Source: Leptolyngbyaceae cyanobacterium
GTDB taxonomy: Bacteria; Cyanobacteriota; Cyanobacteriia; Phormidesmidales; Phormidesmidaceae
DNA length: 64,000 nucleotides
Direction: 5' to 3'
NCBI GenBank assembly: GCA_965263355.1
Contig: CBDHHL010000056.1
Coordinates: 2,400,001 to 2,464,000 of the forward strand
Shown: piece by piece, positions 5,909 to 26,426 of the stretch
How the letters are laid out: every line of letters starts with the position of its first letter
Numbering within the stretch: the first letter of the stretch is position 1
Translations under genes and position numbers: made by a program
Notes under the pieces: model-generated
Told to the model about the DNA's origin: nothing
Database searches by the model: none
The model's input: only the letters and a program-made list of their open reading frames with translations

Positions 5909-8900
5909 ATGTCTAGTCCAACACGTAATCGACAAGCCCACGCGGTCAAGCCCAAAATTCTAGTCGTTGACGATGAACCTGACAATTTAGACCTGTTCTA
6001 TCGAACGTTCTATAGAGAATTTAAGGTTCTGCGGGCAGACAGTGGTCAAAACGCATTGACAAGTTTGGCCGAGAACCCAGATACCGCTGCCATTATTTCA
6101 GACCAGCGCATGCCCCATATGAGCGGCACAGAGTTGCTTTTACAAGTTGCGCAAAGCTACCCCAATACAATGCGGATAATGTTGACAGGCTACACTGATG
6201 TAGATGACCTAGTCGACGCTATCAATACAGGCAAGGTATTTAAGTACATTACTAAGCCCTGGGAGGAAGAGGATCTGCGAGGGGTAGTTCAACAGGCTAT
6301 CGAAACTCACTTAGTCCTCAAATCAAGAACTCGAGAACTTGATCGTATTCTTGAGCAAGAAACTCTCCTCAACGAAATCACCCACACTATTCACAGCACC
6401 GAAACCTCCGAAAAGATGCTGCAGGTAATCACCCGCACAGTGGGAGCAGCATTTGAAGCGGATTATTGTGTCCTACGGCCTTTGTATGATTCGCCAGGGC
6501 AGGGACAGAACTTCTGGACCTACCAAGCGGCTTCAGCCGCGAACATTGATGGAGACACTCTGGCAGACACCGCTATTGATAGCGATAGCCTACAGGTGAT
6601 GACGGCACCCAATCTCCCTGACCATAAGGCTTATCGAATCTTAAGCCCCCAATCTAGTATTCTTATACCGCTCACCAACAAACGTGAGCCTTTGGCCATT
6701 TTGGCACTGCATCACTGCCAGCAGGCCAAACGTTGGCAAACAGAGGAGCTAAAAACCCTGGGGACTTTGGTAGATCAAGCGGCCCTGGCATTGGCGCAGG
6801 CATGGACCTACGAACGAGTCCAGGCTCTGGCACAGCGAGAAGTCTTAATTAACACAATCACTCAGGCAATTCACAGTAGCTTAGAGCCAAAACAAATCTT
6901 TTCAGCCATCACCCAAAAACTGGGACAAGCTCTGCAAACTGACGGCTGTGCAATTTCGTTATGGACCCAGGACGATGACTATGTCGACTGTGTCGGCTTG
7001 TATGATGCCAAACAGGAAAAGATTCTCTCCTTACCAAAATCTCAGGTCAAAATCAGCGAGAACCCCATTCTACAGGAACTGCTAGTCAGCCGATCGCCCG
7101 TCGTCTTTGATGACTTATCGACATCGACCATTCACACCCCTAGCCATTTATCTCTTCAGGCACAGACAACGGCCCTACTGGTAGTGCCCTTAATTACTGA
7201 CGGTCAAATCATCGGTAGCATCAGTTTACGCCAGACCCAACCTCGTCACTGGCATATGGAAGAAATCAACTTGGCCCAGGCAGTTGCCAATCAAGCGGCG
7301 ATCGCAGTGCAGCAAGCTCGGTTATACCAAACCACCCGTCAACAGGCCGAACAATTAATGGCACTAGACAAGCAAAAGACTACATTTTTTCAGAACATTT
7401 CCCATGAATTTCGCACCCCTCTAACCCTGACCATCGGTCCCCTAGAGTCGGCTGTGGAAAATGGTACTGGACTGCCCCTAGATCAGTCGGTCATTGCCCT
7501 GCGCAATTCGCGTCGATTGCTGCGACTTGTCAACCAGCTACTGGACCTCCAGCGGCTTGATGCCGGGCGCATGCAGGCGACTTTTTATCCCTGCGACTTT
7601 GATCAAGTTGTTAAGGGCGTTGCTGAGGCATTTCAAGCCTATTGCGATCGCAAACGCATTACTCTAACCACTCAAATTCAGCCCTGCCCTTCGGTCTACC
7701 TTGACCTCGAAAAATTTGACAAGGTGCTCTATAACATTCTGTCCAATGCCGTTAAATTCACCCCAGCAGGAGGGGCCATTCAAATCACCTTAAATACCTT
7801 TGAAACCCGTTGCTATCTGGAGATCGAAGACACAGGGATTGGTATCCGAAAAGAACAACTACCCTACATTTTTGAACGCTTTCAACAGGCCGATGGCTCT
7901 GCTAATCGTACCCATGAGGGCACAGGCTTAGGTCTGGCACTTGTGAAAGAGTTGGTCGAACTTCATGGCGGGGAAATTCGAGTATCCTCCTCTTATGGGG
8001 CTGGCACCTTATTTACCGTTGAACTGCCGACAGGAGCTGACCATCTACCTGCGGATCGTGTCAATCAAACTGCCCGTACCCTGGAACAGAGGCGAGCAGC
8101 GGTAGAACTCGCCGATCTCCACAATCAAGTAGTGGCTGACACCACATTAGAGCCAACCCCAACTACATTAGAACCAACCCCAACTGCAGATACTGAAGAC
8201 ACTGCAGCGATTGAGCCACTCTCTTCCCCCACAATACCAAACATAGAAATAGCCGCATTATCAAATGCAACTGTAGCTCCAGAGAGTACAACCATCCTCG
8301 TCGTTGATGACAACCCAGATTTACGAAATTATGTAGCAACAATCTTGAAACAACAGAAATATCGCATCAAGACAGCAGATAACGGCGCAACTGGCCTTGC
8401 TGTAGCCAATCACATTCAGCCTCAATTGATTATTACGGATCTGATGATGCCCCAGGTTTCCGGGATAGAACTCATTCAGAAGGTCCGCCTTAATCCCAAA
8501 CTGCAAGGTACGCCCATCATTTTACTCACAGCCAAGGTCGATGATGACACTCGCTTAGAAGGCGTCGAACAGGGAGCAGATGCTTACATATCGAAGCCAT
8601 TTAAGGATCGCGAACTTTTGGCTGAAGTACGTAATTTATTGGCACTTAAGGCCAACGAACACCGGATAGCAGAACTCAACCAGTACCTCACTGAATCTGT
8701 CCTCAAGCGCTTTTTACCAGACTCCTTGGTGCAAAAGGCTGCCCATGGAACCCTACAGCTCAATCTCAAGCCCGAACCTCGCTTAGTGACCGTTTTATTT
8801 AGCGATATTGTGGGATTTACCCAACTGTCTAATACGTTGCGATCTCGCCGGGTAGCCGAACTCCTCAACGAATATTTTGAAGCCATGACCCATGCCATTT

Positions 8901-9358
8901 TTACCAGTGGCGGCACCGTTGATAAATTTATGGGGGACGCTGTTCTAGCCTTATTTGGTGCGCCAGAACCCCTGAGTCCCAATGAACAAGTCAGGCGTGC
9001 GATCGCAGCTGCGCGCCATATGTATAAAGCCCTAGAAGAGCTGAACCAACGTTGGAGTCAGCAGGGCGTTCCCCCTGTTAGATTCCGCTGTGGTATTCAT
9101 CAAGGCACTGCCGTAGTCGGCATGTTTGGCAGTGCTCAAAGAACAGACTATACCGCCATCGGCCCTAGCGTTAATATCGCTGCGCGCCTCCAAGAAGCCG
9201 CTGACGGCGAAAGCATTTTAGTCTCCGCCGCTGTCGCCGACTACCTCGACGAACAAGAAATCGTTAAATTCAGCCCTCTAAAGCTCAAGGGCATTGATGA
9301 AACAGTTCTAACATTCAACGTTAAAACAACCCTGCCAGAAGGTATAGGGATATCGTAG
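5909..9358 (+). CDS. cyaC: Hybrid sensor adenylate cyclase (REC-GAF-GAF-HisKA-HATPase-REC-class III cyclase), CyaC type
   Basis: ILVVDDEP...SDQRMP REC; two GAF domains; ISHEFRTPL H-box; NILSNAVKF, DTGIGI, GTGLGL; second REC; FSDIVGFT, DKFMGDAV, TAIGPSVNIAARLQ. This domain order is that of cyanobacterial CyaC. Confidence 0.93.
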   Translation: MSSPTRNRQAHAVKPKILVVDDEPDNLDLFYRTFYREFKVLRADSGQNALTSLAENPDTAAIISDQRMPHMSGTELLLQVAQSYPNTMRIMLTGYTDVDDLVDAINTGKVFKYITKPWEEEDLRGVVQQAIETHLVLKSRTRELDRILEQETLLNEITHTIHSTETSEKMLQVITRTVGAAFEADYCVLRPLYDSPGQGQNFWTYQAASAANIDGDTLADTAIDSDSLQVMTAPNLPDHKAYRILSPQSSILIPLTNKREPLAILALHHCQQAKRWQTEELKTLGTLVDQAALALAQAWTYERVQALAQREVLINTITQAIHSSLEPKQIFSAITQKLGQALQTDGCAISLWTQDDDYVDCVGLYDAKQEKILSLPKSQVKISENPILQELLVSRSPVVFDDLSTSTIHTPSHLSLQAQTTALLVVPLITDGQIIGSISLRQTQPRHWHMEEINLAQAVANQAAIAVQQARLYQTTRQQAEQLMALDKQKTTFFQNISHEFRTPLTLTIGPLESAVENGTGLPLDQSVIALRNSRRLLRLVNQLLDLQRLDAGRMQATFYPCDFDQVVKGVAEAFQAYCDRKRITLTTQIQPCPSVYLDLEKFDKVLYNILSNAVKFTPAGGAIQITLNTFETRCYLEIEDTGIGIRKEQLPYIFERFQQADGSANRTHEGTGLGLALVKELVELHGGEIRVSSSYGAGTLFTVELPTGADHLPADRVNQTARTLEQRRAAVELADLHNQVVADTTLEPTPTTLEPTPTADTEDTAAIEPLSSPTIPNIEIAALSNATVAPESTTILVVDDNPDLRNYVATILKQQKYRIKTADNGATGLAVANHIQPQLIITDLMMPQVSGIELIQKVRLNPKLQGTPIILLTAKVDDDTRLEGVEQGADAYISKPFKDRELLAEVRNLLALKANEHRIAELNQYLTESVLKRFLPDSLVQKAAHGTLQLNLKPEPRLVTVLFSDIVGFTQLSNTLRSRRVAELLNEYFEAMTHAIFTSGGTVDKFMGDAVLALFGAPEPLSPNEQVRRAIAAARHMYKALEELNQRWSQQGVPPVRFRCGIHQGTAVVGMFGSAQRTDYTAIGPSVNIAARLQEAADGESILVSAAVADYLDEQEIVKFSPLKLKGIDETVLTFNVKTTLPEGIGIS
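8141..8182 (+). repeat. 2 x 21-nt tandem repeat (TTLEPTP) in the CyaC interdomain linker
   Basis: accacattagagccaacccca / actacattagaaccaacccca. Confidence 0.85.
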
Positions 9359-13894: not shown

Positions 13895-14146
13895 AGGATC
13901 ACAGCTCCCACCATTTCGATCTACATAGCGATCTTACTGGCCTGCGTTACCCTGAAGACATCAGAGCCCCAAGAACCTCTGACAGTCAGATTCTGACGGT
14001 CAATTTTTGTCAGACCATCAGCACTTAATACTTGGGATATTCCATAAAAAATGGTTTTTGACAATACTGCCAAAAACCATGGGAAGAGTTGTGATGAACT
14101 CTGAAAATATTATTTAGTACCCTGAAAGTTGAAAATGCACCATAGC

Positions 14147-14296
14147 TTAGCCGTTTGAATCGGGTTTTATCGGAGTAGCAATAGGGGCTCTCATCTGAAA
14201 TCTAAGGCCTAAGAAGGAAAATTTAGGCTGGGTCTCGGAAGTTTTAACGGTTTGGGTAGAAGGTGTGAAAGGTGCTCCAACATGAGTGAGTCGCAT
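14147..14296 (-). CDS. Small protein (49 aa), DUF4278-like, possibly frameshift-truncated
   Basis: Below the ORF-track cutoff. Manual translation: MRLTHVGAPFTPSTQTVKTSETQPKFSFLGLRFQMRAPIATPIKPDSNG. Confidence 0.45.
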   Translation of the reverse strand: MRLTHVGAPFTPSTQTVKTSETQPKFSFLGLRFQMRAPIATPIKPDSNG

Positions 14297-14890
14297 AGGT
14301 CAATTCCAGATAAGCGTGTAAATAAGTGTGTTAGCGGGGATAGAGTATCCTATTATACCAAATTAAAAATCCTCAACCCTACTTTAAAGTAGATGACTTT
14401 TGCAGGATCAGAGACTATTAGGCAAGAACTCGTCTTAGACAGTATGCTGCCAATTAAGCAACGCCCACCATAGCATTGGCATCAAAGCAGTCATTGCGAT
14501 CGCGAAACAGTAAGACAATTAAAGATCGTGTACCTGGGTAAATGTCATGGCTAAAGCCTCCTAAAACGTGTGTTGTATCCCTTGAATTAATAGTAAGAAT
14601 GGCTAAGCCAACTAGCTTAGCCATTCCACTGGAGGAAAGATTAAAGTTTGTTTTTTCCACTAGTGGAAAAACCTTATATGGGGGCACCTCGATTAATTAC
14701 CTATTCTCACCATTTGAGATGCTGAAACCTTTGAAAATACATTCGTGATTTCAACAGAATTTGAATACATAGAGGTGCCCATGGGACATAAAGATTTTGA
14801 ATGATAACAAGACTAGCTGCCATCATTCTGATACCAAACAAAAACGTTCTCTGAGGTTGTTGTTGACAACAAAGGTAGACAACTCACGTA

Positions 14891-15082
14891 CTACAGGTCA
14901 GCACCACCAGAAAAAGCATGACCATCAACAGCCTCAGACGAACGCCCGAAGGGATAGTACGTAGAATCTGGCTGACCATTACTGAAACGAAATCGTGGAG
15001 ATTCAGCTTGGGCAAGGGGGGCAAAGAGCGTAAGTACAGCTGTAAAAGCAAGAGCAGTCAATGCGGTACATTTACATTTCAT
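14891..15082 (-). CDS. Small secreted peptide (signal peptide plus about 37-aa mature part)
   Basis: GGAGG RBS 8 nt upstream; MKCKC-hydrophobic-AQA cleavage motif. Confidence 0.65.
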   Translation of the reverse strand: MKCKCTALTALAFTAVLTLFAPLAQAESPRFRFSNGQPDSTYYPFGRSSEAVDGHAFSGGADL

Positions 15083-15424
15083 CTGAGGAGCCTCCAGTTA
15101 TCAGGTTAGATAAGGGCTTAAACACTTATTAGAATGTCGGGATGACCTGAGTTTCATCTGGACATTAACTGAAAAAGTCTGAAGGCATTTCTGAAATTGG
15201 CTGAGACAATCAGGTGATGACAATCACCAAGTGCTGAGACAGGAGCTACTTCCATAGCTGGTCTTCTTTTTTACGTGGAGATATAGCAGAAGCTTGAGCA
15301 AAGATTGCTATTCCCATGCTAGAGTTATGAGACTAAATTAAATAGCTGGGTAGCATACTGTTAGTTTGAGCGCAAGGGCGCATGCTACCTGGGTGGTTAC
15401 CCACGTTACTAAATCGAGGTAACC

Positions 15425-15616
15425 ATGGAAGATACTCAGACGATATTTGAAAAAGCTGTAGAGGCATACAGGGAAAATTGCGATCGCAACGATCTGACAT
15501 TTCAGCAACCCAGTGAAGAGTATTCAAACATGATTCATGACGTTATGTATCTGCGGGTCAGTCCGGCTAGCTATGTAGCCAGATACGATACCCGACGACA
15601 GCGTGTTCTAGCTTAG
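15425..15616 (+). CDS. Small hypothetical protein (63 aa, FQQPS motif)
   Basis: GAGGT RBS, globular composition, followed by a strong hairpin. Confidence 0.7.
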   Translation: MEDTQTIFEKAVEAYRENCDRNDLTFQQPSEEYSNMIHDVMYLRVSPASYVARYDTRRQRVLA

Positions 15617-15626
15617 AAAGCCACTA

Positions 15627-15657
15627 TCTGTCATAGAGCCAGCAGCTCTATGACAGA
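15627..15657. terminator. 13-bp hairpin between convergent genes
   Basis: tctgtcatagagc-cagca-gctctatgacaga. Confidence 0.65.
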
Positions 15658-15742
15658 AACCTACTAAGTAGTCGCGAAACTTGAGTGCGTTCTCATGACA
15701 ACACCCAGTAGGGTATCGGGTTGCGAGAAGGTAGTTGACCTG

Positions 15743-18700
15743 TTACAGCTCTTTAGGTAACTGCAGATTCAACTCTTGGAAAAACTCCGTATCCTCTGAG
15801 AGTACTACAGAACCTGGTTCAGCCAACTGTCCATTAATCTGCAGCTGATAGGAACCCTGCTCAAGACGCTCTAATGCATACACACCAGCATCATTCGTCA
15901 CAGAAAAACGACGAGAACTGCCATCCTCCGAGATAGCCTCCACTCGGGCACCGCCTACAGCATTACCCTCAGTATCTGTGACAACGCCAATAAACGTATA
16001 AGAAGGTATCAGAGGAATGGATACTGGAGTGTAACTACCAGGGACAACTTCTATAGCTGTGGCCCCCGTATCCGCCTGCCAATCTAACGGGAAACCAGCT
16101 GGGTCAATGTCCAAACGATAGATGCCTGGAGCTGTACGCATTAAGATACCATCATCATTGATTTCTGGCCGATAAGTTCGAATTGATTCATTGTTTAGCA
16201 CCAACAACAGATCAGCATCGTCCGTATAGAAATCTTCTTCCTGATCGCGCTGACCATTGTTGTTACGATCAAAATAGGGTTCTACCAAAATACCCCCCTG
16301 CGGTCTGAGAAAATCAGCCCGCCGATCACCAGGGCGAAATCCTCGTTGAGAATTAATGCTGGAGACTAACTCTAAGCGGAAAGAATCTTCACTAGACGTG
16401 ACAGAAACCCCTTGATAACGCGCTCTTAGTAATATCCCAGGTAGTATCGTCGTCTGGGCCGAAGCAATTAATCCTGAGCCCTCACTGCCAGTGGCATATC
16501 CTGCCTGGGCTTCCCAGGCAAAATTACCATCGGAGGCCCGCTCTCGTGATCGATATCGCCACCCTGCTGTCACGAGATTGCCACTATTTTCTTGGCTACG
16601 GGTTTCGTAATTGGTAAAAATTGAGTGGCCTGAATCAAACGTATTCGATCCAGACAGGTTATAACTCACCTCTGATAGCGTGCTCACTTCATCACCGCGA
16701 GAATCAATCTCTAAATCGCCTAGACTTTGCAGAAAATTCCAGCGAAAATCACCATCTGTATTGATAGTTGTTCTCGCGAATGTGAACGCATCTCTACCCC
16801 CAAAGGCAACTTGTGCACCGATGGCCTCAGCTTCGCGATCGCTAGCAATACCCAGTAACGTTACTTCAGGACTAACACGCCAGTCGACATTAAACCGACG
16901 TTCAAAGCGATTACTCGTAAATCGAGCACTCAAATCATCAGATGGGTCATACCGTACAGCTGCATCCACATCCCATGTGCCTTCATCATCAGCTGTTAGC
17001 ACTCGGGCAGCTACCTGTAAAGGAACATCAGTAGGCTGATAGAATAACTCACCTAACCCCTGAAAATTCTCGTCATAGACAGCGCCAACCCCTAAAGTCA
17101 ACTCTTCTGAAGCACCCCAACGGTAGGCTGCGCCACCTCGCAGTTCACCAAAGTCTCCGAGAAAATTGTTAGAGCCCGTATCACGCTGCCATCCAGTAGA
17201 AACAACCCAGGCAGACGCCCCCGTTGGTAATTGACCCGCCACGTCTGAAAAACTAACAACACGAACCTCTGGTAGATCTGTTAAGCGACCATTGGGATAT
17301 AACAAAACCTGATAGTTACGACTGAGAATATTACGACCAACATCAACCTCGTTAAACCGATATAGTCCTGACGAGTCCACCAAAACCTGGTCAATTACCC
17401 GATTACTAAACCCTTCAGTCAATTGAACTAACGTACCTGGCTCTGCCTCACCTGTAATAGTCCGACCAATTTGATTACCAGATTGCAACCGTTGGCCGAC
17501 ATCAGCACTACCACTACGTTGGTCTTTCGGGTCATAGCCTTGACGCTGTACATAGGTAGCCCCCCACAGATCATTGGCTCCAGCTGAGTCCCAAAACGGC
17601 CCCTGGGAGCCCAATACCAAGTCAAATTGATCGGTGGGTCTAAAATACTGTGCCTCAGACAAATTCCAGCTGCGTGAGTCAGAAAATTCAGGTTGGTCAA
17701 CACTGAGGTACCAGCTACCATCCCAAAGCGTACCCACTGCTGAGAAATCCCCTTGATAGGAGGTATCCCGATCACCATTACTGACGACATCTAACTCTTG
17801 CTCAAAGGCCGTCACAGTCGACTGGGGCGCTTGTATCAACGGCAGTCCCTCTAGCTGTACCTCTGAGGTACGAAATAAACGAGAGCCACGGCTACCCACC
17901 AGCCAAGGAGGCAACAGACGAACTGCGTATTCACTGATATCAAATTCAGCATCAACTTGAAATCGCTCCTCAAGTTCTTTGACCGAAAAGACCAGGCCCA
18001 AATCGTCATCTATTTGAATCGAATCAGGATCCAGCTTTGTGACAAAACCCGGCGAACTAATTTCTAACTGGCCATCGGCGTCAACATCTACCTGCAAACG
18101 TAACGCTTGAACAACCGCATCATAGGGAATCAGCCAATTTTCAAAATCAACGGCCTCAGAACCATCGATTTTTCCTTTTACAAATTCACTCAGTAAGACG
18201 GCACGCTCATTAATATTGACACCCACTGGAAAGACTTCGAATGATTCAAACTGAGAATCGTTTTCCGACGCGTCCGCATCCTCTGTACTGCCGTCCTCTA
18301 GGTCTGCAGTCTCCCCATCAGCTTCACCCGCCTCTAAACTCTCTTCATCATTGGCCTCAGCATCCTCTAGAGATGAAGTATCACCCTCTAAGTCGTCCAC
18401 CTCCAGATCCTCTAATACAGGAAGTGTGGTGTCGTTAGCTTCAGTTTCTATATCAACCAAATCAGGTAGATTGTTTTCAATATCCTCGTCTGCTGATTGA
18501 CTGGTAAAAATTTCAGCAGCGTCAATAGCATCATCCTCTGCACCACTGACATTTTGGGAGTTAAGGTCTGTGCCCATATCAGGCTCTACCAGCAGATCAG
18601 CTGCTGCCATGCCATTGAGGACGGGTAGCGTATCTTCCCCCTGTAAAGCATTAAGCCTCTCCGTCACCTCAGAAGCATCAACTGTCTGGCTTTGAAGATC

Positions 18701-19198
18701 TGTCACTGATGGACTGCTATCCACCGTGTTTGCAGACACATTAGAACCATCAACTGTCTGATTTTGAAAATCCGCCACTGATGGACTGCTATCCACCGCA
18801 TTAGCAGACATATCTACAGGCTGTGGCGACGGCAGTTGAAGTGTCTCAGAAATGGGTTCTACAGTTTGAGACAATCCATTCCCAACAAGTTTATCCTCAA
18901 CAGTTTCACTGGCAACAGTTTCATTTGCTGTAAGGGTTTCCGAATTGCTCTCAATCTGTTGTGACGTCTCATTCAGGCTAACCAGCTGTCTTTGCCCAGA
19001 ACGACCAAATTTCGCAAACATCGGTTTTGGAATCCCCACCCGTCCCTGCCGCAATGAAGTAGGTGCTGATTCCACCACAGGTGGTGTTACTACAGTGGTC
19101 GTTTCCGGTAAAATCCGATCTGCAACTTCTACATTGGAGCCTGGATCTGGGACTGGTAATGCGGGGGGTAGATTGGGGATATCAATAGCATATGTCAT
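15743..19198 (-). CDS. Outer-membrane fimbrial usher-like protein with an acidic N-terminal extension and C-terminal SdrD-B / carboxypeptidase-regulatory-like Ig domains
   Basis: Plug-like TITGEAEPGTLVQL...VDSSGLYRFNEV...YQVLLYPNG; barrel-like YRWGASEELTLGVG and amphipathic beta strands; C-terminal YFDRNNNGQRD and GVVTDTEGNAVGGARV...TNDAGVY. Lies next to a PapD-like chaperone. Confidence 0.75.
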   Translation of the reverse strand: MTYAIDIPNLPPALPVPDPGSNVEVADRILPETTTVVTPPVVESAPTSLRQGRVGIPKPMFAKFGRSGQRQLVSLNETSQQIESNSETLTANETVASETVEDKLVGNGLSQTVEPISETLQLPSPQPVDMSANAVDSSPSVADFQNQTVDGSNVSANTVDSSPSVTDLQSQTVDASEVTERLNALQGEDTLPVLNGMAAADLLVEPDMGTDLNSQNVSGAEDDAIDAAEIFTSQSADEDIENNLPDLVDIETEANDTTLPVLEDLEVDDLEGDTSSLEDAEANDEESLEAGEADGETADLEDGSTEDADASENDSQFESFEVFPVGVNINERAVLLSEFVKGKIDGSEAVDFENWLIPYDAVVQALRLQVDVDADGQLEISSPGFVTKLDPDSIQIDDDLGLVFSVKELEERFQVDAEFDISEYAVRLLPPWLVGSRGSRLFRTSEVQLEGLPLIQAPQSTVTAFEQELDVVSNGDRDTSYQGDFSAVGTLWDGSWYLSVDQPEFSDSRSWNLSEAQYFRPTDQFDLVLGSQGPFWDSAGANDLWGATYVQRQGYDPKDQRSGSADVGQRLQSGNQIGRTITGEAEPGTLVQLTEGFSNRVIDQVLVDSSGLYRFNEVDVGRNILSRNYQVLLYPNGRLTDLPEVRVVSFSDVAGQLPTGASAWVVSTGWQRDTGSNNFLGDFGELRGGAAYRWGASEELTLGVGAVYDENFQGLGELFYQPTDVPLQVAARVLTADDEGTWDVDAAVRYDPSDDLSARFTSNRFERRFNVDWRVSPEVTLLGIASDREAEAIGAQVAFGGRDAFTFARTTINTDGDFRWNFLQSLGDLEIDSRGDEVSTLSEVSYNLSGSNTFDSGHSIFTNYETRSQENSGNLVTAGWRYRSRERASDGNFAWEAQAGYATGSEGSGLIASAQTTILPGILLRARYQGVSVTSSEDSFRLELVSSINSQRGFRPGDRRADFLRPQGGILVEPYFDRNNNGQRDQEEDFYTDDADLLLVLNNESIRTYRPEINDDGILMRTAPGIYRLDIDPAGFPLDWQADTGATAIEVVPGSYTPVSIPLIPSYTFIGVVTDTEGNAVGGARVEAISEDGSSRRFSVTNDAGVYALERLEQGSYQLQINGQLAEPGSVVLSEDTEFFQELNLQLPKEL
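18668..18812 (-). repeat. 2 x 72-nt (24-aa) imperfect tandem repeat in the usher N-terminal region
   Basis: SANAVDSSPSVADFQNQTVD / SANTVDSSPSVTDLQSQTVD; the core actgatggactgctatccaccg recurs at a 72-nt offset. Confidence 0.85.
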
Positions 19199-19566
19199 GG
19201 GAACCTCACAACCATTTTTGGTTTTGAATAGGAACTTTTTTTTGTAAAATCAGGCCAACAAAAGATTCCTAGCAAAGAGCCGAAGCAATGATTGAAAGTC
19301 TTTCATACAAGCGTTTTCACTTACTTCAGCACAGGATGACCATCATTTAAAAGCAGCAAGCGTAATGTGTGGGGGACAAATCTGTACCCAGAAATTGACA
19401 ACAATATCTCCGTAGTTCACGGAAATACTCCGGATCACTCCTATGCAATAAACAGGGAGACTGCTGAAGACTGAGTCAGCTTGCTCAATTAGATTGAAGA
19501 GAATTAAATGGTGCGTCTGCGTTCATATCTCCATCCTTAAATGATGAATCCACCATCTAAATCAGC

Positions 19567-19914
19567 ATGATTGCACGCTTACACAGCCGTGTTGCTGCCA
19601 GCTTTTTGCTTATAGGCAGCAGCAGTCTTTTTTTGTCAGCCAAGACCGCATTTGCAGAAAGTGCCAGTACAGATATTTTGTTTACAGGAACAGTGCCCGT
19701 CACCTGCGCATTTGAAGGACTATCACCAGCAGACCAGTTAGACCCAAAACTAGTGATGGCAAATCGTCAGGCCAACTGTAACGAGGGCACAGCTAGCCTG
19801 CATTATGAATCAACAACTGTAGAATCAACTAACTTTCCTATACCATCTGAGGATACTAGCTCAGACTTCACGAGCAGCTCCCAGCAAGGCATCATTACCC
19901 TTACTGCACACTAG
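19567..19914 (+). CDS. Short pilin-subunit paralog, opposite strand to the rest of the locus
   Basis: Signal peptide (AFA), then TDILFTGTVPVTC matching VPFTGTVPAFC of 21275..21736; second Cys in ANCN; C-terminal IITLTAH. Confidence 0.75.
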   Translation: MIARLHSRVAASFLLIGSSSLFLSAKTAFAESASTDILFTGTVPVTCAFEGLSPADQLDPKLVMANRQANCNEGTASLHYESTTVESTNFPIPSEDTSSDFTSSSQQGIITLTAH

Positions 19915-20743
19915 AGACTGTACTAGGAATCGTCACATCCAACTCAAACGGCAGGGTTTCCCACTCTTCATCTTCTGGCCAGATCAGCTCACCAGTCAGC
20001 TGATATTGGCCGGATGATAGTGTTGAAAATGTATCATCCAAGGAGCCTAGGGGGAGATGTCGAGACCCTTCTGCGATCACCGAAAACGGCTCAGTTTCAC
20101 CAGCGGCCACTTCTGCACCAGACTGTTTTAGCTGCCAGCTCACACTGGGACGACTTGATGCAGGACCAGAGTTGTTAACCAACAACTCTAACTGATTGTC
20201 TTCGACATCTACAAATGCCCTATCAACAGTTAACTCAGGAGCCAGATCTCCATGGCGTACATAAATGGTGGAACCAACTCGTGTCTTTAGCACAACACGA
20301 ACGCCTTCTTCATTGATTGACTCAACTAAATTTTCAGTAAAGAGTATACCTCGATATTCACCCTCTGCCAGACTGGGAGGGAGCTGGGCCACAAATCGAA
20401 TTTTTCGCGAACCAGCAACAGGTACCTCTAGCTCAATGGGAGAAAATCGTAGATAGGAGGTTAAATCATTGGGAGATGTCTCCAATGATTGAAACCCGTC
20501 TTCTTGATCGTAGGTAAAGGGCTCCATATAGACTCTGGCACGGAAAACCTCATCCGTCTCGTTAGTAACGGTAATCACTCCCTGAGCCCGCCCACGCTCA
20601 GCTTCTACTTCAATCACTAAGGGAGAAATCCCTACTTGTGCTGAAGCGGTCCCTACCCATAGGGCAGAAAATCCAAGCCCAAGGCCCAATATTTTTACTG
20701 TTGATAGACAACGCCAAAAAGGGAACTGCTTTATACCAAACAT
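19901..20743 (-). CDS. PapD-like periplasmic pilus chaperone
   Basis: Signal peptide (ASA), VGISPLVI, ITVTN, FSPIELEV...SRKIRF, GEYRGILFTE, NNSG in the second domain. Confidence 0.85.
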   Translation of the reverse strand: MFGIKQFPFWRCLSTVKILGLGLGFSALWVGTASAQVGISPLVIEVEAERGRAQGVITVTNETDEVFRARVYMEPFTYDQEDGFQSLETSPNDLTSYLRFSPIELEVPVAGSRKIRFVAQLPPSLAEGEYRGILFTENLVESINEEGVRVVLKTRVGSTIYVRHGDLAPELTVDRAFVDVEDNQLELLVNNSGPASSRPSVSWQLKQSGAEVAAGETEPFSVIAEGSRHLPLGSLDDTFSTLSSGQYQLTGELIWPEDEEWETLPFELDVTIPSTVSSVQ

Positions 20744-21274
20744 GACATCAACGCCTAACTAAGACTGTTTTGATAAACAACATCTCATCAGCTAACGATA
20801 AAAGGGCAGAGATTCTTCGCTATAAATGAATCAATTACCTTACAGCCTCAAAGAGTCGATTAATGTAATGGCCATTTTTTGACCTATAGCTTTTGATGAA
20901 CAGAGATCAAAGCCACTAAAAGTATGAATATGATTTTTTTCACAGTCCTCTGAAGAAAAAACAAACCTATCAGAAACTGGATATTTAAAGCCGTCATCTA
21001 CTTCTAGATAAACCCTGATAAAGCTCATTCAATATATTGCCATTAACAAAATGGTAGATACAAACCTGTATAATGAATCATTAAGTAGAAAAAGTCACTG
21101 TCTAACAATCATAGGAAAGAATGAGAATTCGATAGTTTACTTATAGTCAGGAATTCTATCTTTCCCACCACATTCCCTATGATTATTAGAGGTAAACAAA
21201 CCAGTTTTTGCTATTGCAAAACTCTGGCAAATCAACTTATCCTATTGCACCTAATGAGATACATTTAGTTTCTC

Positions 21275-21736
21275 TTAGGAAGGAGTTGCGGTAACTGTTA
21301 CTTCGAACTCATAATCAGCAGCGGGAAGAAGCGCTCCACCTTGATCGACCTTAAGATCAACCTCAATTACTTCATCCACAACTGGATCAGGATAGCTAAT
21401 AGGACCAGTACCATCATTGAGCCAAGTCATAGTATTGAATGGATTGAGAGATGGGCCAGCTTTTTTAGTAACAGCAGTCACATCTACTTCAGAAGCACTA
21501 TTACAGGTCAATTCAACAGAGCCTGAGTTACCACCAGGAGCCTTGCTAGAGAGGGCGGTAGCAGGTGTACCAATAGTTCCTAAGGTACCTGGCAGGACGT
21601 TGTCAAGCTCACAAAAGGCAGGAACAGTACCAGTAAATGGAACGTTTGCTGTTGCAGGATCTGCTTTGGCTGTAGGAGCAAGAATTACACTACTTCCAAT
21701 GGCTAAAACAGATGCTAATGCTAAATGCCGAATCAT
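21275..21736 (-). CDS. Probable major pilin subunit (Csu / spore-coat-U-like)
   Basis: Strong GGAGG RBS, signal peptide (AKA), alternating N-terminal strand ATANVPFTGTV, Cys pair (FC...LTCN), C-terminal PAADYEFEVTVT. Confidence 0.75.
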   Translation of the reverse strand: MIRHLALASVLAIGSSVILAPTAKADPATANVPFTGTVPAFCELDNVLPGTLGTIGTPATALSSKAPGGNSGSVELTCNSASEVDVTAVTKKAGPSLNPFNTMTWLNDGTGPISYPDPVVDEVIEVDLKVDQGGALLPAADYEFEVTVTATPS

Positions 21737-22131
21737 AATAATCCTCCAAGGAATCGAAAAACGTTTTAACTGATTTAAACCTCTAAAAAAGAATCTATTT
21801 AATAGGCAAACAGATATTTTTTAAAGGTCTGGTAAAGACTACTTAATAGACAGTCATTCTCCGGAAAAACACAGGGACTAAAATATTAAGAAAAATATTT
21901 TAGCCCCTAATCTTAAAACCCTATTTATTGACAGCAAAAATCACGACTAAAACCCTTAAAGCCGTAATAAAACAAAAATTTTAGAGCCATAAAATAGCTC
22001 AAAAAAAGCTTTATAAAGAAATCAATACCTATTAAATTCACTCACTAAAGCCGTGTTTTTAATAGGTTTTATCTCTTGTTTTTTGATCAATATTGCTATC
22101 TAAGGTTTAACTGTTCCAGAGACACCGCTGT

Positions 22132-22220
22132 CTGAGCGAAGTCGTTCGCGAAGCGTCTCCTTCGGAGTTAACCAATATACCCCAACCAGCGTCCCCTTCG
22201 ACGCCGCTCAGGGGACGCTG
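22132..22220. repeat. Composite REP-like element (CTTCGACnnCGCTCAG family plus a GCGAAGCGTCTCC small repeat)
   Basis: ctgagcgaagtcg at 22132; 11-bp stem cagcgtcccct-tcgacgccgctc-aggggacgctg at 22187-22220. Confidence 0.7.
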
Positions 22221-22223
22221 ACT

Positions 22224-22808
22224 CTAAGGTGCAACTGTAAGGGTCACTTTATAGGTGTAGGTTCCTGGTGGAAATCCTAACCGCAAATCCTGTGCAGTGA
22301 CGCGCATATCCACCTCTAGAGGAAGCTCGACGCCACGGGGAATAGGCAACGGCGATGCATTTGCACTGGTATTTCCCACAGGGGAGTCAACAAAGGCCTC
22401 AGCCAGGGATACCACCACATTGGGGCCGCCAGTTTGTACCGGCTCATTAACCACTAGCTGGGTATCACCATTGCACGTTAGATTAACCTGTCCAGGCAGT
22501 CCTCCTGACGCCAGACTGCTGAGTTTCTCAGCAATGGGTGACCCTACGGGCACAAGGCGACCAGGATCAGGGGTGTCAAACACACAGGCCAGGTCAACAA
22601 CACCCGTAAAGGGTACATCTACCGACGACGAGGCATTCGGAGCGGTAGAGCTGAAGGGTCTGTCAGCCGTGGTGTTATTAGTACTTGGAGTACTTACCTG
22701 TGCTAGCGCACTGGTAGAAAATGTCGTTGTCAACAGCAGTAGTGACGACGCTCCTAAGAAACTTTTTATCAGTGCTGGGATTGTTAGACAATGCGGTTGG
22801 CTAGTCAT
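22224..22808 (-). CDS. Pilin subunit paralog with a Ser/Thr-rich N-terminal extension
   Basis: VDVPFTGVVDLAC...LSS...GG.PGQVNLTCN...GGP...LEVDMRV...FPPGTYTYKVTLTVAP aligns along its length with 21275..21736. Confidence 0.78.
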   Translation of the reverse strand: MTSQPHCLTIPALIKSFLGASSLLLLTTTFSTSALAQVSTPSTNNTTADRPFSSTAPNASSSVDVPFTGVVDLACVFDTPDPGRLVPVGSPIAEKLSSLASGGLPGQVNLTCNGDTQLVVNEPVQTGGPNVVVSLAEAFVDSPVGNTSANASPLPIPRGVELPLEVDMRVTAQDLRLGFPPGTYTYKVTLTVAP

Positions 22809-23105
22809 ACAAACTCTTTCCTATTTTCTAAACTGTTGCGTAGCATGCTCTACTACTCAGCACATTCCAGGTAATGGATAGTCTCTGTAGTACACAAAAA
22901 TGCAGCTGAGCCCAGAGCACTACTGCCCCTGATTAAAGCCATCATCAGATGAACATGTGTGAATGGTTAGCCTACAGTTATGCAAATGTTGAAGCCATTA
23001 GCATCAATGCCAATACCATTGGCAGATGATTGACACCCCAAAAAGCTAAATTGAATGGCCCCTGCTAAGGACAATTAAAAACTTGTGCGACTCCGAGTAA
23101 GCCCT

Positions 23106-23519
23106 TTAATCTGTCAACACAGTAAACCTGTAGCGATAGTCACCCGCTGGAAAATCAACAGGTCGCCTGACTCGGATATCGACTTCGACCTGGGTGAACC
23201 CAGGCGGCAACGCTAAACGATCACCACTACTGCCTCGGCGACCGGCTGCGTTCACTTCTATATCATGATTTGTGCCCGCAGGATCAGGTGCTGGCCCAGA
23301 GGCCATGCTGGCCGAAAGTACCTGCAAGTTAATCGGCTCATCACTCCAAATTTCAAGGACAGCGGGGGCTGCTGTCTCCAAGACCTGTGGGTCGTAGGGA
23401 TCAATCTCTAAAAGGCCGCTATTAATCACCCGAATCGTAGATTCTGCATAGGCTGGAGAGAGTATGCCTAAGACGGGGGCGAAAAGTACGACCGCCAAGG
23501 GGAACACAAGGCGTAACAT
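23106..23519 (-). CDS. Divergent pilin paralog lacking the N-terminal strand and cysteines
   Basis: GAGGAG RBS, signal peptide (AYA). SGP...VEVDIRV...FPAGDYRYRFTV matches the C-terminus of the other subunits. Confidence 0.7.
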   Translation of the reverse strand: MLRLVFPLAVVLFAPVLGILSPAYAESTIRVINSGLLEIDPYDPQVLETAAPAVLEIWSDEPINLQVLSASMASGPAPDPAGTNHDIEVNAAGRRGSSGDRLALPPGFTQVEVDIRVRRPVDFPAGDYRYRFTVLTD

Positions 23520-23939
23520 GTTAACTCCTCAGGGAACATCGCTAACGGAATCAGACGTTAAGCAGTATCGCCAGAATTGAAGCGCCTACTCTGAAAACGA
23601 CCACAATAGATGAGTGTCGTACGTCAGTTAGTACTTCAAAGCCAATGATTTAGATTTTTAGCCGCCATCTGATGTTTTCCGCATATTTCGAAACGGACCA
23701 GTGAAAATAAGTGCTCGCTACTTCAGTAATACTTGACTGAGATCACACATCAGGAATTCTACCTAAACTTAACATTTAATAATGGTAGCTTGATGATGCC
23801 TGAGTAAAGTTACTACTACACCCAAACTGGTCGATGCTTTGCCCATGAGACATAGGAAACAGAGGACAGTCAAACTGACGCTGACCATCTCCAAGAATAG
23901 ATTATAGTATGTCGTACCACACACTTTAAGTTGAGAAAA

Positions 23940-24143
23940 TTAACTACAGGTTGAAGTATTACGAAACTTTGGCAAGGAGAATGAGGCCACAACCACTCCC
24001 AGGAGTTGACCTTCTTCTAAGATCCATCGAGCAATTGGCTGAGGAGTCTCAGCTTGGGCAGCCTGACACATTGAAGACAAAACTTCCATGACATCAGGCG
24101 GATGACTGTTAGTAGATTGAATCACCGGGATAGTGGAGAGCAT
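23940..24143 (-). CDS. Small hypothetical protein (PIARWILEEGQL)
   Basis: 67-aa ORF in the orientation of the locus. The C-terminus may be frameshifted. Confidence 0.45.
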   Translation of the reverse strand: MLSTIPVIQSTNSHPPDVMEVLSSMCQAAQAETPQPIARWILEEGQLLGVVVASFSLPKFRNTSTCS

Positions 24144-24264: not shown

Positions 24265-24280
24265 TGTGTTTTATGTCACA
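24265..24280. promoter_or_regulatory. CRP-like site TGTGT-N6-TCACA
   Basis: 9/10 match to TGTGA-N6-TCACA, intergenic, upstream of the minus-strand genes. Confidence 0.4.
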
Positions 24281-24394: not shown

Positions 24395-25072
24395 CTACAC
24401 TAAATGCCGACAGCGACACTCAATATTGCACTTACGAAAAATATTTTTCATATGCTTTTTAACCGTATTTAGCGCAATCACTAACTGCTCACCGACCTGC
24501 CGATAGGAAAGCCCCTGCAGATAAAGCTCCCAAACTTCAGCTTCCCGCTCGGTCAGCTCATAACGATAGGCATCTGCCATGGCCCGGTGATGGGCAATCT
24601 GGGTTAAATCTTCAATCGTGACCAGAATGCATTTTGTCGGCTGATCTGCCCAATCAATCCATTCCACATTGAGATACAGACGAATACCCCCTGGCAGAAA
24701 CGCTGTGTCATAAAGCTGCAGCGTATATTCAGGAAAGTCTTCACAGCTTTCCATCAGGAAATTACGGAGTGTCGTCACCTGCTCAGGTATACCTGTTACT
24801 GACTGATAATCAACAGCACCAAACGCCTGACCTTTGACACCTTTGCGCAAGAGCATACAAAATTCATCGGCCCTAGTCGTACTTTGGAGTAAATTGCCAG
24901 CTTGATCAAATAGGATGAAACCGCGAAATGGAAACAACTGTCCTAGCAACGTTTCAAAAATCAAGTCCAGATTATCTGTGCTGGACTTGACCTCGTTTAT
25001 GCTGTGAACAGATTGGAACACCTCATCCATAGGGGTTGGGAGGTTACTTACGCTTGCGGTACTTAGCACCAT
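24395..25072 (-). CDS. LuxR-family HTH transcriptional regulator with a PAS-like N-terminal region
   Basis: LTEREAEVWELYLQGLSYRQVGEQLVIALNTVKKHMKNIFRK; GFILFDQAGNLL...ILVTIED. Confidence 0.92.
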   Translation of the reverse strand: MVLSTASVSNLPTPMDEVFQSVHSINEVKSSTDNLDLIFETLLGQLFPFRGFILFDQAGNLLQSTTRADEFCMLLRKGVKGQAFGAVDYQSVTGIPEQVTTLRNFLMESCEDFPEYTLQLYDTAFLPGGIRLYLNVEWIDWADQPTKCILVTIEDLTQIAHHRAMADAYRYELTEREAEVWELYLQGLSYRQVGEQLVIALNTVKKHMKNIFRKCNIECRCRHLV

Positions 25073-25352: not shown

Positions 25353-26426
25353 ATGGCATACAGGAGAGGCATTCCCATGAATCCAGGGCTAAAACCAGCG
25401 GATGTTGAGGCGTGGTTTCCATTAGATGTACAAACTAAATACATCGAGCATATTGTGCATCAGCCAGGTTTAAAGATAACCCTCAGACAAGCGACCTATT
25501 TTGTCCGACTGTGGGGCTATGGCTATCTGATGCAGCATGGAATGGACCATGCACCGATCAGTACCCTCAAGCGACAGATCAGTAGCTTTTACTGCTCCCA
25601 CAGCGATGCAGCTGACTTATTTTATACACAGACCCAGGGTACACCACGGGCAGCCGGTCAGATGTTGGACAAGCTAGCCTCTAAAAACTTACTTAAACGA
25701 GGTGAAGCCGATGGTGTGGCCACCCGGCTCAGCTTAAATATTCCCCATGGGTTTGAGCTACCCGAAACAGAGAATGATGATACGTTCTATGCCGATGGTT
25801 TTGACCCTCGTAACGATGCCACCCTAGTCGCTAACATTTTAGAAAAGGTTTATAGCTACGACCCTGAACGACCGGAATCAATGCTCCACAGTATTAAGCG
25901 AGGACTCCGACAATGGGCACGACAATATTCTGAGGGTCTAAGGGTATTACGACGAACATCTACTAGAGAACCGGTTGGATTCGCTGCATTTTTGCCCGCT
26001 CACCCTGACTCAGAAGAGAAATTTGATCTCTCTCCTAGCCTAAGTTTACACCTTAGTCGGTTTGATGAGAGAGAAGAAGATCCGATCAAAATCGCAACCA
26101 AAGGAGAGCCTGATTGTTACACAGTTTTTGTGCGCAGCTGGCAAATTCAGCCCAATATTTGGACCTATGAAAACGCCTGTGAGTTGATCAAAGACTCTCA
26201 GATAACGTTGAACAAAATGCGAGACGATTTCCCCAATCTCAGTGATATTTACACCATCGCCATTCATCCCCGCTCAGAAGACTTTGCCCTATCTCTCGGC
26301 TTTCGAATGACTAAGGCAGATCCTCATTCTTCATTACGCTGGCTTTATATGCCCCTCGACCGATTTCTTGAGCTAGATTATGAGGACGTATTACTAAACT
26401 TTGATTACAGCCATCGCTACAATTAA
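25353..26426 (+). CDS. Hypothetical protein (putative winged-helix N-terminal domain plus GNAT-like C-terminal domain)
   Basis: SHSDAADLFY...RAAGQMLDKLASKNLLKR; LRVLRR...EPVGFAAFLP...VFVRSWQI...FALSLGFR. The start may be 25377. Confidence 0.8.
   Translation: MAYRRGIPMNPGLKPADVEAWFPLDVQTKYIEHIVHQPGLKITLRQATYFVRLWGYGYLMQHGMDHAPISTLKRQISSFYCSHSDAADLFYTQTQGTPRAAGQMLDKLASKNLLKRGEADGVATRLSLNIPHGFELPETENDDTFYADGFDPRNDATLVANILEKVYSYDPERPESMLHSIKRGLRQWARQYSEGLRVLRRTSTREPVGFAAFLPAHPDSEEKFDLSPSLSLHLSRFDEREEDPIKIATKGEPDCYTVFVRSWQIQPNIWTYENACELIKDSQITLNKMRDDFPNLSDIYTIAIHPRSEDFALSLGFRMTKADPHSSLRWLYMPLDRFLELDYEDVLLNFDYSHRYN

Follow-up and report, generated by a model that had tools for sequence, protein, structure and literature searches.

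A putative non-classical chaperone-usher fibre locus in a Leptolyngbyaceae cyanobacterium

We analysed a 64,000-nucleotide stretch of a Leptolyngbyaceae cyanobacterium genome (assembly GCA_965263355.1, contig CBDHHL010000056.1, positions 2,400,001 to 2,464,000; hereafter the window, whose own numbering is used throughout), in which six open reading frames (ORFs) for an usher, a chaperone and four pilin paralogs all fall inside positions 15743-23519. The locus is very probably a chaperone-usher (CU) system, and we put at roughly 70% the probability that its product is a discrete adhesive surface fibre built by the chaperone-usher route.

Components of the locus

15743-19198, minus strand: usher, 1151 amino acids (AlphaFold2 model, Foldseek)
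19076-19198, minus strand: proline-rich start of the usher, first 41 codons (conservation in three species)
19567-19914, plus strand: shortened pilin paralog, 115 amino acids (motifs, substitution rates)
19901-20743, minus strand: non-classical two-domain periplasmic chaperone, 280 amino acids (profile and EcpB alignment)
21275-21736, minus strand: pilin, 153 amino acids, likely major shaft subunit (model, folds, identity to a relative)
22224-22808, minus strand: pilin, 194 amino acids, putative minor or adaptor subunit (motifs)
23106-23519, minus strand: single-domain pilin paralog, 137 amino acids, tip-cap candidate (motifs, conservation)

All six genes recur in identical orientations in Leptolyngbya sp. 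Heron Island J (locus L001), a close relative of the host with an 88% identical usher core and shared flanking genes, and in a third species (L002), where the usher is cut by the contig end. Across these three loci, non-synonymous divergence (dN, 0.10-0.41) was compared with synonymous divergence (dS, 0.64-2.97 or saturated) for every gene, and purifying selection acts on all six. Because the same genes and orientations are kept in both relatives and dN lies far below dS, a chance origin of the locus is excluded. The only Pfam matches at the locus were PF13620 on the usher and SCPU on one pilin (E 0.15), and NCBIfam held a family for none of the six proteins.

An AlphaFold2 model of usher residues 316-1151, built from a 120-row alignment (predicted local distance difference test score, pLDDT, 84.5; predicted template modelling score, pTM, 0.73), contains an N-terminal domain (about residues 321-434), a barrel (464-949) enclosing a plug (about 577-653) and two C-terminal beta-sandwich domains, the last of which is PF13620; an acidic leader (residues 1-315) precedes them. 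Foldseek placed FimD and PapC structures at all of ranks 1-18 (best E 2e-25, template modelling score about 0.44), and comparison with the PapC pore aligned 357 residues (Z 15.7, root-mean-square deviation, rmsd, 4.3; VIA), bearing out an earlier note on this DNA that had described an usher-like protein with a plug, a barrel and two C-terminal immunoglobulin (Ig)-like domains. In the model, six strands are followed by the plug and then by twenty more, each with one conserved hydrophobic face. The usher barrel is thus predicted to have 26 strands, a count taken from the secondary-structure listing of the model; the plugged usher fold that had been anticipated is there, but not the anticipated number of about 24 strands. 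FimD and PapC barrels have 24 strands and LptD has 26 (PMC13721041).

Covariation among 272 sequences (effective number 193, partly the same sequences as in the alignment behind the model) placed 21 of the 25 consecutive antiparallel strand pairs above the 95th percentile of 299 non-adjacent pairs, the weakest neighbours being strands 24-25, 12-13, 8-9 and 6-7. Barrel closure was not detected by covariation, as strands 1-26 (z 1.8) and 1-24 (z 0.7) both lay within noise. PF00577 matched neither the window usher nor any of the 120 homologues listed, a PDB sequence search with the usher profile returned, apart from one chance row, nothing but designed Pizza proteins, and a faint CooC_C match fell on the usher C-terminus (E 0.23).

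The usher leader is strongly acidic, with 70 D/E versus 9 K/R in the first 320 residues, and has no hydrophobic segment in its 315 positions. Between the window, L001 and L002, 27, 25 and 24 of the first 41 residues are identical, and 35-41% of the whole leader. A crude hydropathy rule sorted 214 usher homologues into 142 signal-like, 36 proline-leader and 36 other proteins; because it also failed to recognise 6 of 61 pilins and 12 of 41 chaperones, the rule overcounts proteins without a signal. A proline-leader profile, run against 759 ORF starts at E<=0.05, recovered its six training ushers, five other ushers and nothing else. A frameshift masking an upstream signal peptide was ruled out by in-frame stops upstream of the usher start in all three species, and by the contigs of runs X1 and X2, which have no indel there, X1 being possibly the source sample itself.

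The 40-row chaperone profile matched CfaA (4NCD, E 5e-4; also 6K73 and 4Y2O) and EcpB (E 4e-3); a PDB sequence search with the chaperone alone gave nothing significant. In the EcpB alignment (probability 83%), Pro102, Arg131 and Val156 fall opposite Pro60, Arg89 and Ile117 (P0), and by sequence V150, L152, T154 and V156 fall opposite the G1 donor-strand residues. Both the domain 1 (D1) proline and the equivalent of Arg89 in strand F1 are present in 40 of 40 family chaperones; this arginine has been singled out as the foremost hallmark of the archaic and alternative types (PMC4654587). The classical Arg8 of the domain 1 carboxylate anchor (Arg8/Lys112 type, as in PapD, FimC and Caf1M) is absent: mature position 8 is valine or isoleucine in 27 of the 40, no arginine is conserved in the first 12 positions, and PapD_N did not match the window chaperone. 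Judged by these signature residues, the chaperone is of the non-classical type; it had been called PapD-like, of which the periplasmic chaperone stands and the PapD type does not. The family also has an invariant tyrosine (mature 212) and a near-invariant arginine (193), which might correspond to the domain 2 anchor pair of CsuC (Tyr196 and Arg174); domain 2 itself did not align to EcpB. The 3' end of the chaperone gene overlaps the convergent plus-strand pilin paralog by 14 bp.

The pilin paralogs, named here by their first coordinate, were compared by model and by motif. The mature 21275 product was modelled with high confidence (pLDDT 95.8) as a beta-sandwich with six main core strands that ends in a C-terminal strand, preceded by 16 residues without secondary structure. 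In the model, the Ig fold is incomplete and the N-terminal strand lies free; complete Ig folds lacking a donor-strand groove were what the earlier note had named as refuting its pilus reading. Its structural neighbours were CS17 (Z 6.8, rmsd 4.0, 107 residues aligned), CfaB (Z 6.3-6.4), the pilin domains of PapG and FimH (6.0), CooA, CsuA/B and CupE; Foldseek found CfaB at E 0.009, and a PDB sequence search with the pilin profile gave CsuE at E 3.6 only. SCPU is carried by 39% of members of the pilin's cluster of atlas neighbours, and SCPU similarity is weak in the family itself (5 of 56 pilins at E<=0.1, best 0.008). Among these 56 pilins, the donor motif has its phenylalanine in 40 and its glycine in 42, the cysteine pair (Cys17/Cys53) is found in 43 and 46, and the positions of the GxY motif in 51 and 54.

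Four exported paralogs sharing some or all of these motifs had been proposed, and the paralogy holds; all three motifs occur only in the 21275 and 22224 products. The 21275 product is 58% identical to its L001 counterpart, versus 73-77% for the 22224 and 23106 products, and as the most variable full-length paralog it is likely the major shaft subunit. An extra Ser/Thr/Pro-rich stretch precedes the donor strand of the 22224 product, which may be a minor or adaptor subunit. The 23106 product has the C-terminal motif only, with no donor strand and no cysteines, and is 77-82% identical across three species; its motifs make it a tip-cap candidate, as for a first-incorporated subunit, and donor-less paralogs also occur in L010, L021, L027 and L030. 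In the 19567 product, encoded on the plus strand, the signal peptide, the FTGxV..C donor-strand motif, the cysteine pair and the C-terminal strand are kept, the GxY motif is missing and the middle of the fold is deleted (dN 0.31-0.41, dS 1.1-2.8); it is a candidate terminator or anchor. Homodimer prediction for the 21275 product gave a median of 0.34 (runs 0.32, 0.45 and 0.34; mark 0.42; controls 0.00-0.01) and is not used as evidence.

Distribution and sister groups

In a set of 401 Cyanobacteriota genomes that contains the centre genome (G001), with two candidates scored per genome, the usher profile matched 36 genomes, 28 of them at E<1e-100, which after removal of two short forms leaves 26 with full-length ushers, two of these split into two ORFs. 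PF00577 ushers were found in 19 of the same genomes, and both types in six. The family of the window locus, here termed class I, is therefore no rarer than the PF00577 type in these genomes (26 versus 19); its named relatives include Nostoc, Fischerella, Calothrix, Rivularia, Coleofasciculus and Symploca. One full-length usher relative is named Trueperaceae, so the family is not strictly cyanobacterial, and 200 representatives reached E<=1e-30 in a wide search with the usher profile.

We assembled 33 class I loci (30 from the genome search together with the window, L001 and L003), several of which stop at contig ends. The chaperone is present in 30 and at least one pilin in 29, with zero, one, two, three or four pilins in 4, 12, 9, 5 and 3 loci, respectively. 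No other neighbour is shared across the 33 loci beyond generic signalling genes, and no type IV pilus family recurs beside them. Outside the locus, G001, G002 and G003 yielded no more than three weak matches to the pilin profile, all of them N-terminal (E 1.5e-4 to 0.006). A quick tree of 67 chaperones, with weakly supported deep branches and long branches that join one another, united the class I chaperones in one group (SH-aLRT 98), apart from four found beside PF00577 ushers and from EcpB, EcpE and FimC.

The window locus has no two-domain adhesin gene, as had been noted, but this absence is less of an oddity than it was taken for, two-domain pilin-like genes being missing from 31 of the 33 class I loci. 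The polyadhesive systems Caf1 and Afa/Dr provide a precedent for the lack of such an adhesin. In the other two loci, tandem two-domain pilin-like genes (L037:12903-14036, 377 amino acids; L039:6490-7509, 339 amino acids) lie between pilin and chaperone; they are candidates for CsuE-like tip adhesins of one sub-branch, and the L037 and L039 chaperones are sisters in the quick tree.

The chaperone profile matched 70 of the 401 genomes and revealed two sister groups, class II and class III, whose ushers align to those of class I over 763 columns (probability 100%) and at a probability of 96%, respectively. Class II loci (L042-L049, L092-L094) encode 900-1250-amino-acid ushers, mostly with proline-rich leaders, a chaperone and pilins of about 200 amino acids, and several adjoin polyphosphate kinase (confirmed in L043 and L045). 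Class III loci (L076-L089) comprise a 300-amino-acid exported gene, a chaperone, two 200-amino-acid pilin-like genes and a 900-1015-amino-acid usher-like gene, with PF13620 and SdrD_B as the only Pfam matches. Their hosts, in the 14 of about 25 such loci examined, are 1.6-2.5-Mb, mostly low-GC genomes of the phylum and, judging by size and GC content only, may be non-photosynthetic Vampirovibrionia.

Several reduced or broken relatives were also seen. L040:7242-9206 and L041:8899-10878 encode short usher relatives of 654-659 amino acids without C-terminal domains and with no chaperone nearby, and P0235, P0253 and P0262 are proteins of 460-495 amino acids matching the second part of the barrel only. 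The ushers of L003 (9494-12552), L031 and L035 are split into two ORFs by frameshift, insertion or assembly error. A plasmid search gave no usher match and two chance chaperone rows, and an EcpB query there gave no CfaA-type locus.

Proposed assembly and alternative explanations

The models and motifs suggest a pathway in which the four exported pilin paralogs likely polymerise by donor-strand exchange. The pilins would cross the inner membrane by Sec, after which the chaperone G1 strand (V150/L152/T154/V156) would fill the missing strand of each pilin while Arg131 holds the C-terminal carboxylate. The usher N-terminal domain would recruit the chaperone-pilin complexes, and its C-terminal domains would pass them on. 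In this scheme, the donor-less 23106 product would enter first as a single-domain tip cap, the 22224 product would serve as a minor or adaptor subunit, and the shaft would consist of the 21275 product, joined by its V-x-F-x-G-x-V strand; the 19567 product could donate a strand but accept none, and would thereby end or anchor the fibre. By analogy with other chaperone-usher systems, the fibre may mediate adhesion to surfaces or to neighbouring filaments, and the mat formation proposed in the earlier note is a putative role as well.

Several points weigh against a fibre of this kind. Fold scores for the pilin are middling, with no Foldseek match at E<=0.001 and a best Z of 6.8, and the usher has no canonical Sec signal peptide (best 11-residue hydropathy 0.88 in the first 60 amino acids). 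A tip and a terminator are not standard components of the family, given that only one pilin gene is found in 12 of the 33 loci. A Synechocystis ushA (slr0019) mutant, affected in the other cyanobacterial CU type, is still motile and still flocculates (PMC6755745), so that adhesion need not follow from the presence of a CU locus. The roles of the individual paralogs are proposed from their motifs, and the fibre itself is predicted from the genes.

The subunits might instead polymerise into a capsule, a sheath layer or short fibrillae, which we consider unlikely. The frequent lack of a two-domain adhesin and the single-pilin loci would suit such a product. Protein U of Myxococcus is a chaperone-usher product other than distinct pili; likewise, Caf1 fibrils of Yersinia form a capsule via a chaperone-usher system (PMC13721041). 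The closest pilin folds, however, are those of the rod-forming CfaB and CS17, and the donor-less tip candidate of the window locus is strongly constrained. Less probable still is an export role without a polymer of its own, of the kind proposed for Synechocystis CccS/CccP/Slr0019, in which usher and chaperone would release single subunits or other proteins that alter the cell surface or the type IV pili. The Synechocystis genes do affect thick pili (bioRxiv 10.1101/130278; PMC4390875), and a CRP-like site lies upstream at the window locus too; but the conserved donor-strand motif is meaningful only if subunits exchange strands with one another, type IV pilus gene families do not recur as neighbours of the 33 loci, and the class I chaperones group apart from those beside PF00577 ushers.

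Decay or inactivity of the system in this lineage, through loss of the usher signal peptide and truncation of one pilin, is the least plausible of these explanations and can be almost dismissed. The usher's lack of a hydrophobic N-terminal segment and the shortened paralog on the opposite strand are what it would predict, yet dN is far below dS for the usher core, the chaperone and all pilins, the leader start is conserved in three species, similar leaders occur on further ushers, including the five outside the profile training, and the usher start is free of indels in the contigs of runs X1 and X2. A discrete adhesive surface fibre is thus the reading that we prefer.

Going further, we tentatively consider, at somewhat less than even odds, that class I is an undescribed non-classical CU branch and the commonest CU type in cyanobacteria. 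It would be distinguished by a 26-strand usher (two strands more than FimD/PapC, as in LptD), a proline-rich leader in place of the canonical Sec signal in some lineages, a donor-less single-domain cap and a truncated, antisense-encoded pilin as the end; some of the thin pili that have no assignment in filamentous, mat-forming cyanobacteria might belong to it, and class I together with classes II and III might extend across the whole phylum. The composition of non-type-IV cyanobacterial pili has been described as an open question (PMC4390875), and because earlier surveys located cyanobacterial CU systems through PF00577, class I was missed. Relatives in tractable filamentous strains make knockouts possible. 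If correct, the combination of a 26-strand usher and an alpha-type chaperone with FxGxV pilins would bear on the evolution of ushers and on the split between classical and non-classical systems, although the class I system, whose function we infer, is a variation on a well-known machine.

Surroundings of the locus and comparison with known systems

One possible regulatory element lies about 215 bp upstream of the first pilin gene:

23732-23747, minus strand: CRP-like site TGTGA-N6-TCAAG, conserved in L001 and L002, possible regulatory site

Matches to the CRP consensus across the window were at chance level (2 versus 2.19), and no enrichment was seen upstream of family pilins (1/61 versus 5/279 at <=1 mismatch). 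A second CRP-like site with one mismatch (24265-24280, similar in L001) lies about 120 bp upstream of an unannotated 67-amino-acid ORF (23940-24143, minus strand) between the LuxR gene and the first pilin; this ORF has no Pfam match and is conserved in L001 and L002, where its changes are mostly at third positions. Promoter and terminator scans were also at chance (12 versus 17.8 and 9 versus 10.0, respectively). With that terminator total in mind, a 16-pair hairpin with a T-run (21872-21909, minus strand), in the AT-rich 488-bp gap between the 22224 and 21275 pilin genes, could split minor-pilin from major-pilin transcription.

Next to the locus, in the window and in L001, are a LuxR-type helix-turn-helix regulator without a receiver domain (24395-25072, minus strand) and a divergent 357-amino-acid protein with no Pfam or NCBIfam match (25353-26426, plus strand), neither of which is a recurrent neighbour across family loci. 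Downstream of the usher, 1.85 kb (13895-15742) contain no ORF of 80 amino acids or more; a 63-amino-acid ORF there (14891-15082, minus strand) resembles a small exported peptide. A hybrid sensor with receiver, two GAF, histidine kinase, receiver and adenylate/guanylate cyclase domains (5909-9358, plus strand) lies 6 kb from the locus and is syntenic in L001. A search for repeats or an invertible element brought up nothing of note.

Among known systems, the alternative (alpha) pathway (CFA/I CfaA/CfaB/CfaC, CS1, CS17, ECP EcpB/EcpA/EcpC) is similar in chaperone and pilin: CfaA and EcpB, with the Pro60, Arg89 and P0 equivalents, are the chaperone's best solved matches and CS17 and CfaB the pilin's best folds. 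The window locus differs in having no Pfam alpha-family match and no two-domain adhesin of the CfaE/CooD/EcpD type, and in pilins with an FxGxV..C donor motif and a cysteine pair, which are reminiscent of FimA and PapA. Class I chaperones also stand apart from EcpB and EcpE in the quick tree, where these two are the only alpha references and deep branches are weak. Comparison of the window usher with EcpC by hhalign gave a probability below 1%, and EcpC against FimD as a control 0.2%, so that this comparison, like the other single-sequence profile comparisons with EcpC, FimD, EcpA, FimA and FimC, is insensitive.

Classical FimD and PapC resemble the modelled usher in the N-terminal domain, the plug after strand 6, a barrel over the same residue range and two C-terminal domains. 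They differ from it by strand number (24 versus a predicted 26), by sequence (9-14% identity), by its proline-rich acidic leader and by a partner chaperone without Arg8. The usher-chaperone-small exported protein layout is shared with classes II and III and recalls unannotated 'carboxypeptidase regulatory-like' outer-membrane proteins of other phyla; the usher's neighbours in the atlas include proteins of Fusobacteriota and Pseudomonadota. The pilins of classes II and III, however, have about 200 amino acids and other N-terminal motifs, class III adds its 300-amino-acid exported gene, and Pfam finds no SPOR tail in class I. The Microcystis cyanobacterial tubular (CT) pilus is likewise a non-type-IV cyanobacterial filament with an adjoining outer-membrane protein, set apart, by its description only, by a tubular pilin fold and a glycosyltransferase cluster (PMC12397347).

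The archaic (sigma) pathway, with Acinetobacter Csu, Pseudomonas CupE and cyanobacterial CccS/CccP/Slr0019, is likewise present in cyanobacteria and shares the non-classical chaperone arginine, weak SCPU similarity and the CsuA/B and CupE fold neighbours. Cyanobacterial CU clusters have been defined by SCPU, PapD_N and PF00577 (PMC4390875, whose Fig. 2 draws weak homologies as broken lines, among which some class I members might appear); a FimD/SCPU cluster is reported in Nodularia (PMC5853447), and Limnospira has two annotated CU genes, their type not being stated in the available text (bioRxiv 10.64898/2026.10.22.760931). Our literature search, with supplements and most subscription papers outside it, found no description of the class I usher family, in keeping with the earlier suggestion that the system is probably uncharacterised. 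Identity with the Synechocystis or Nodularia type was ruled out: at the window locus SCPU, PapD_N and PF00577 are below cut-off or absent, the usher profile aligned to cyanobacterial PF00577 ushers over 59 C-terminal columns only (probability 77%) or not at all, and the chaperones form a separate group. Folds, chaperone signature, gene linkage and chaperone tree therefore support the earlier proposal of a fimbrial system distinct from Synechocystis CccS/CccP/Slr0019, now as a member of a common family.

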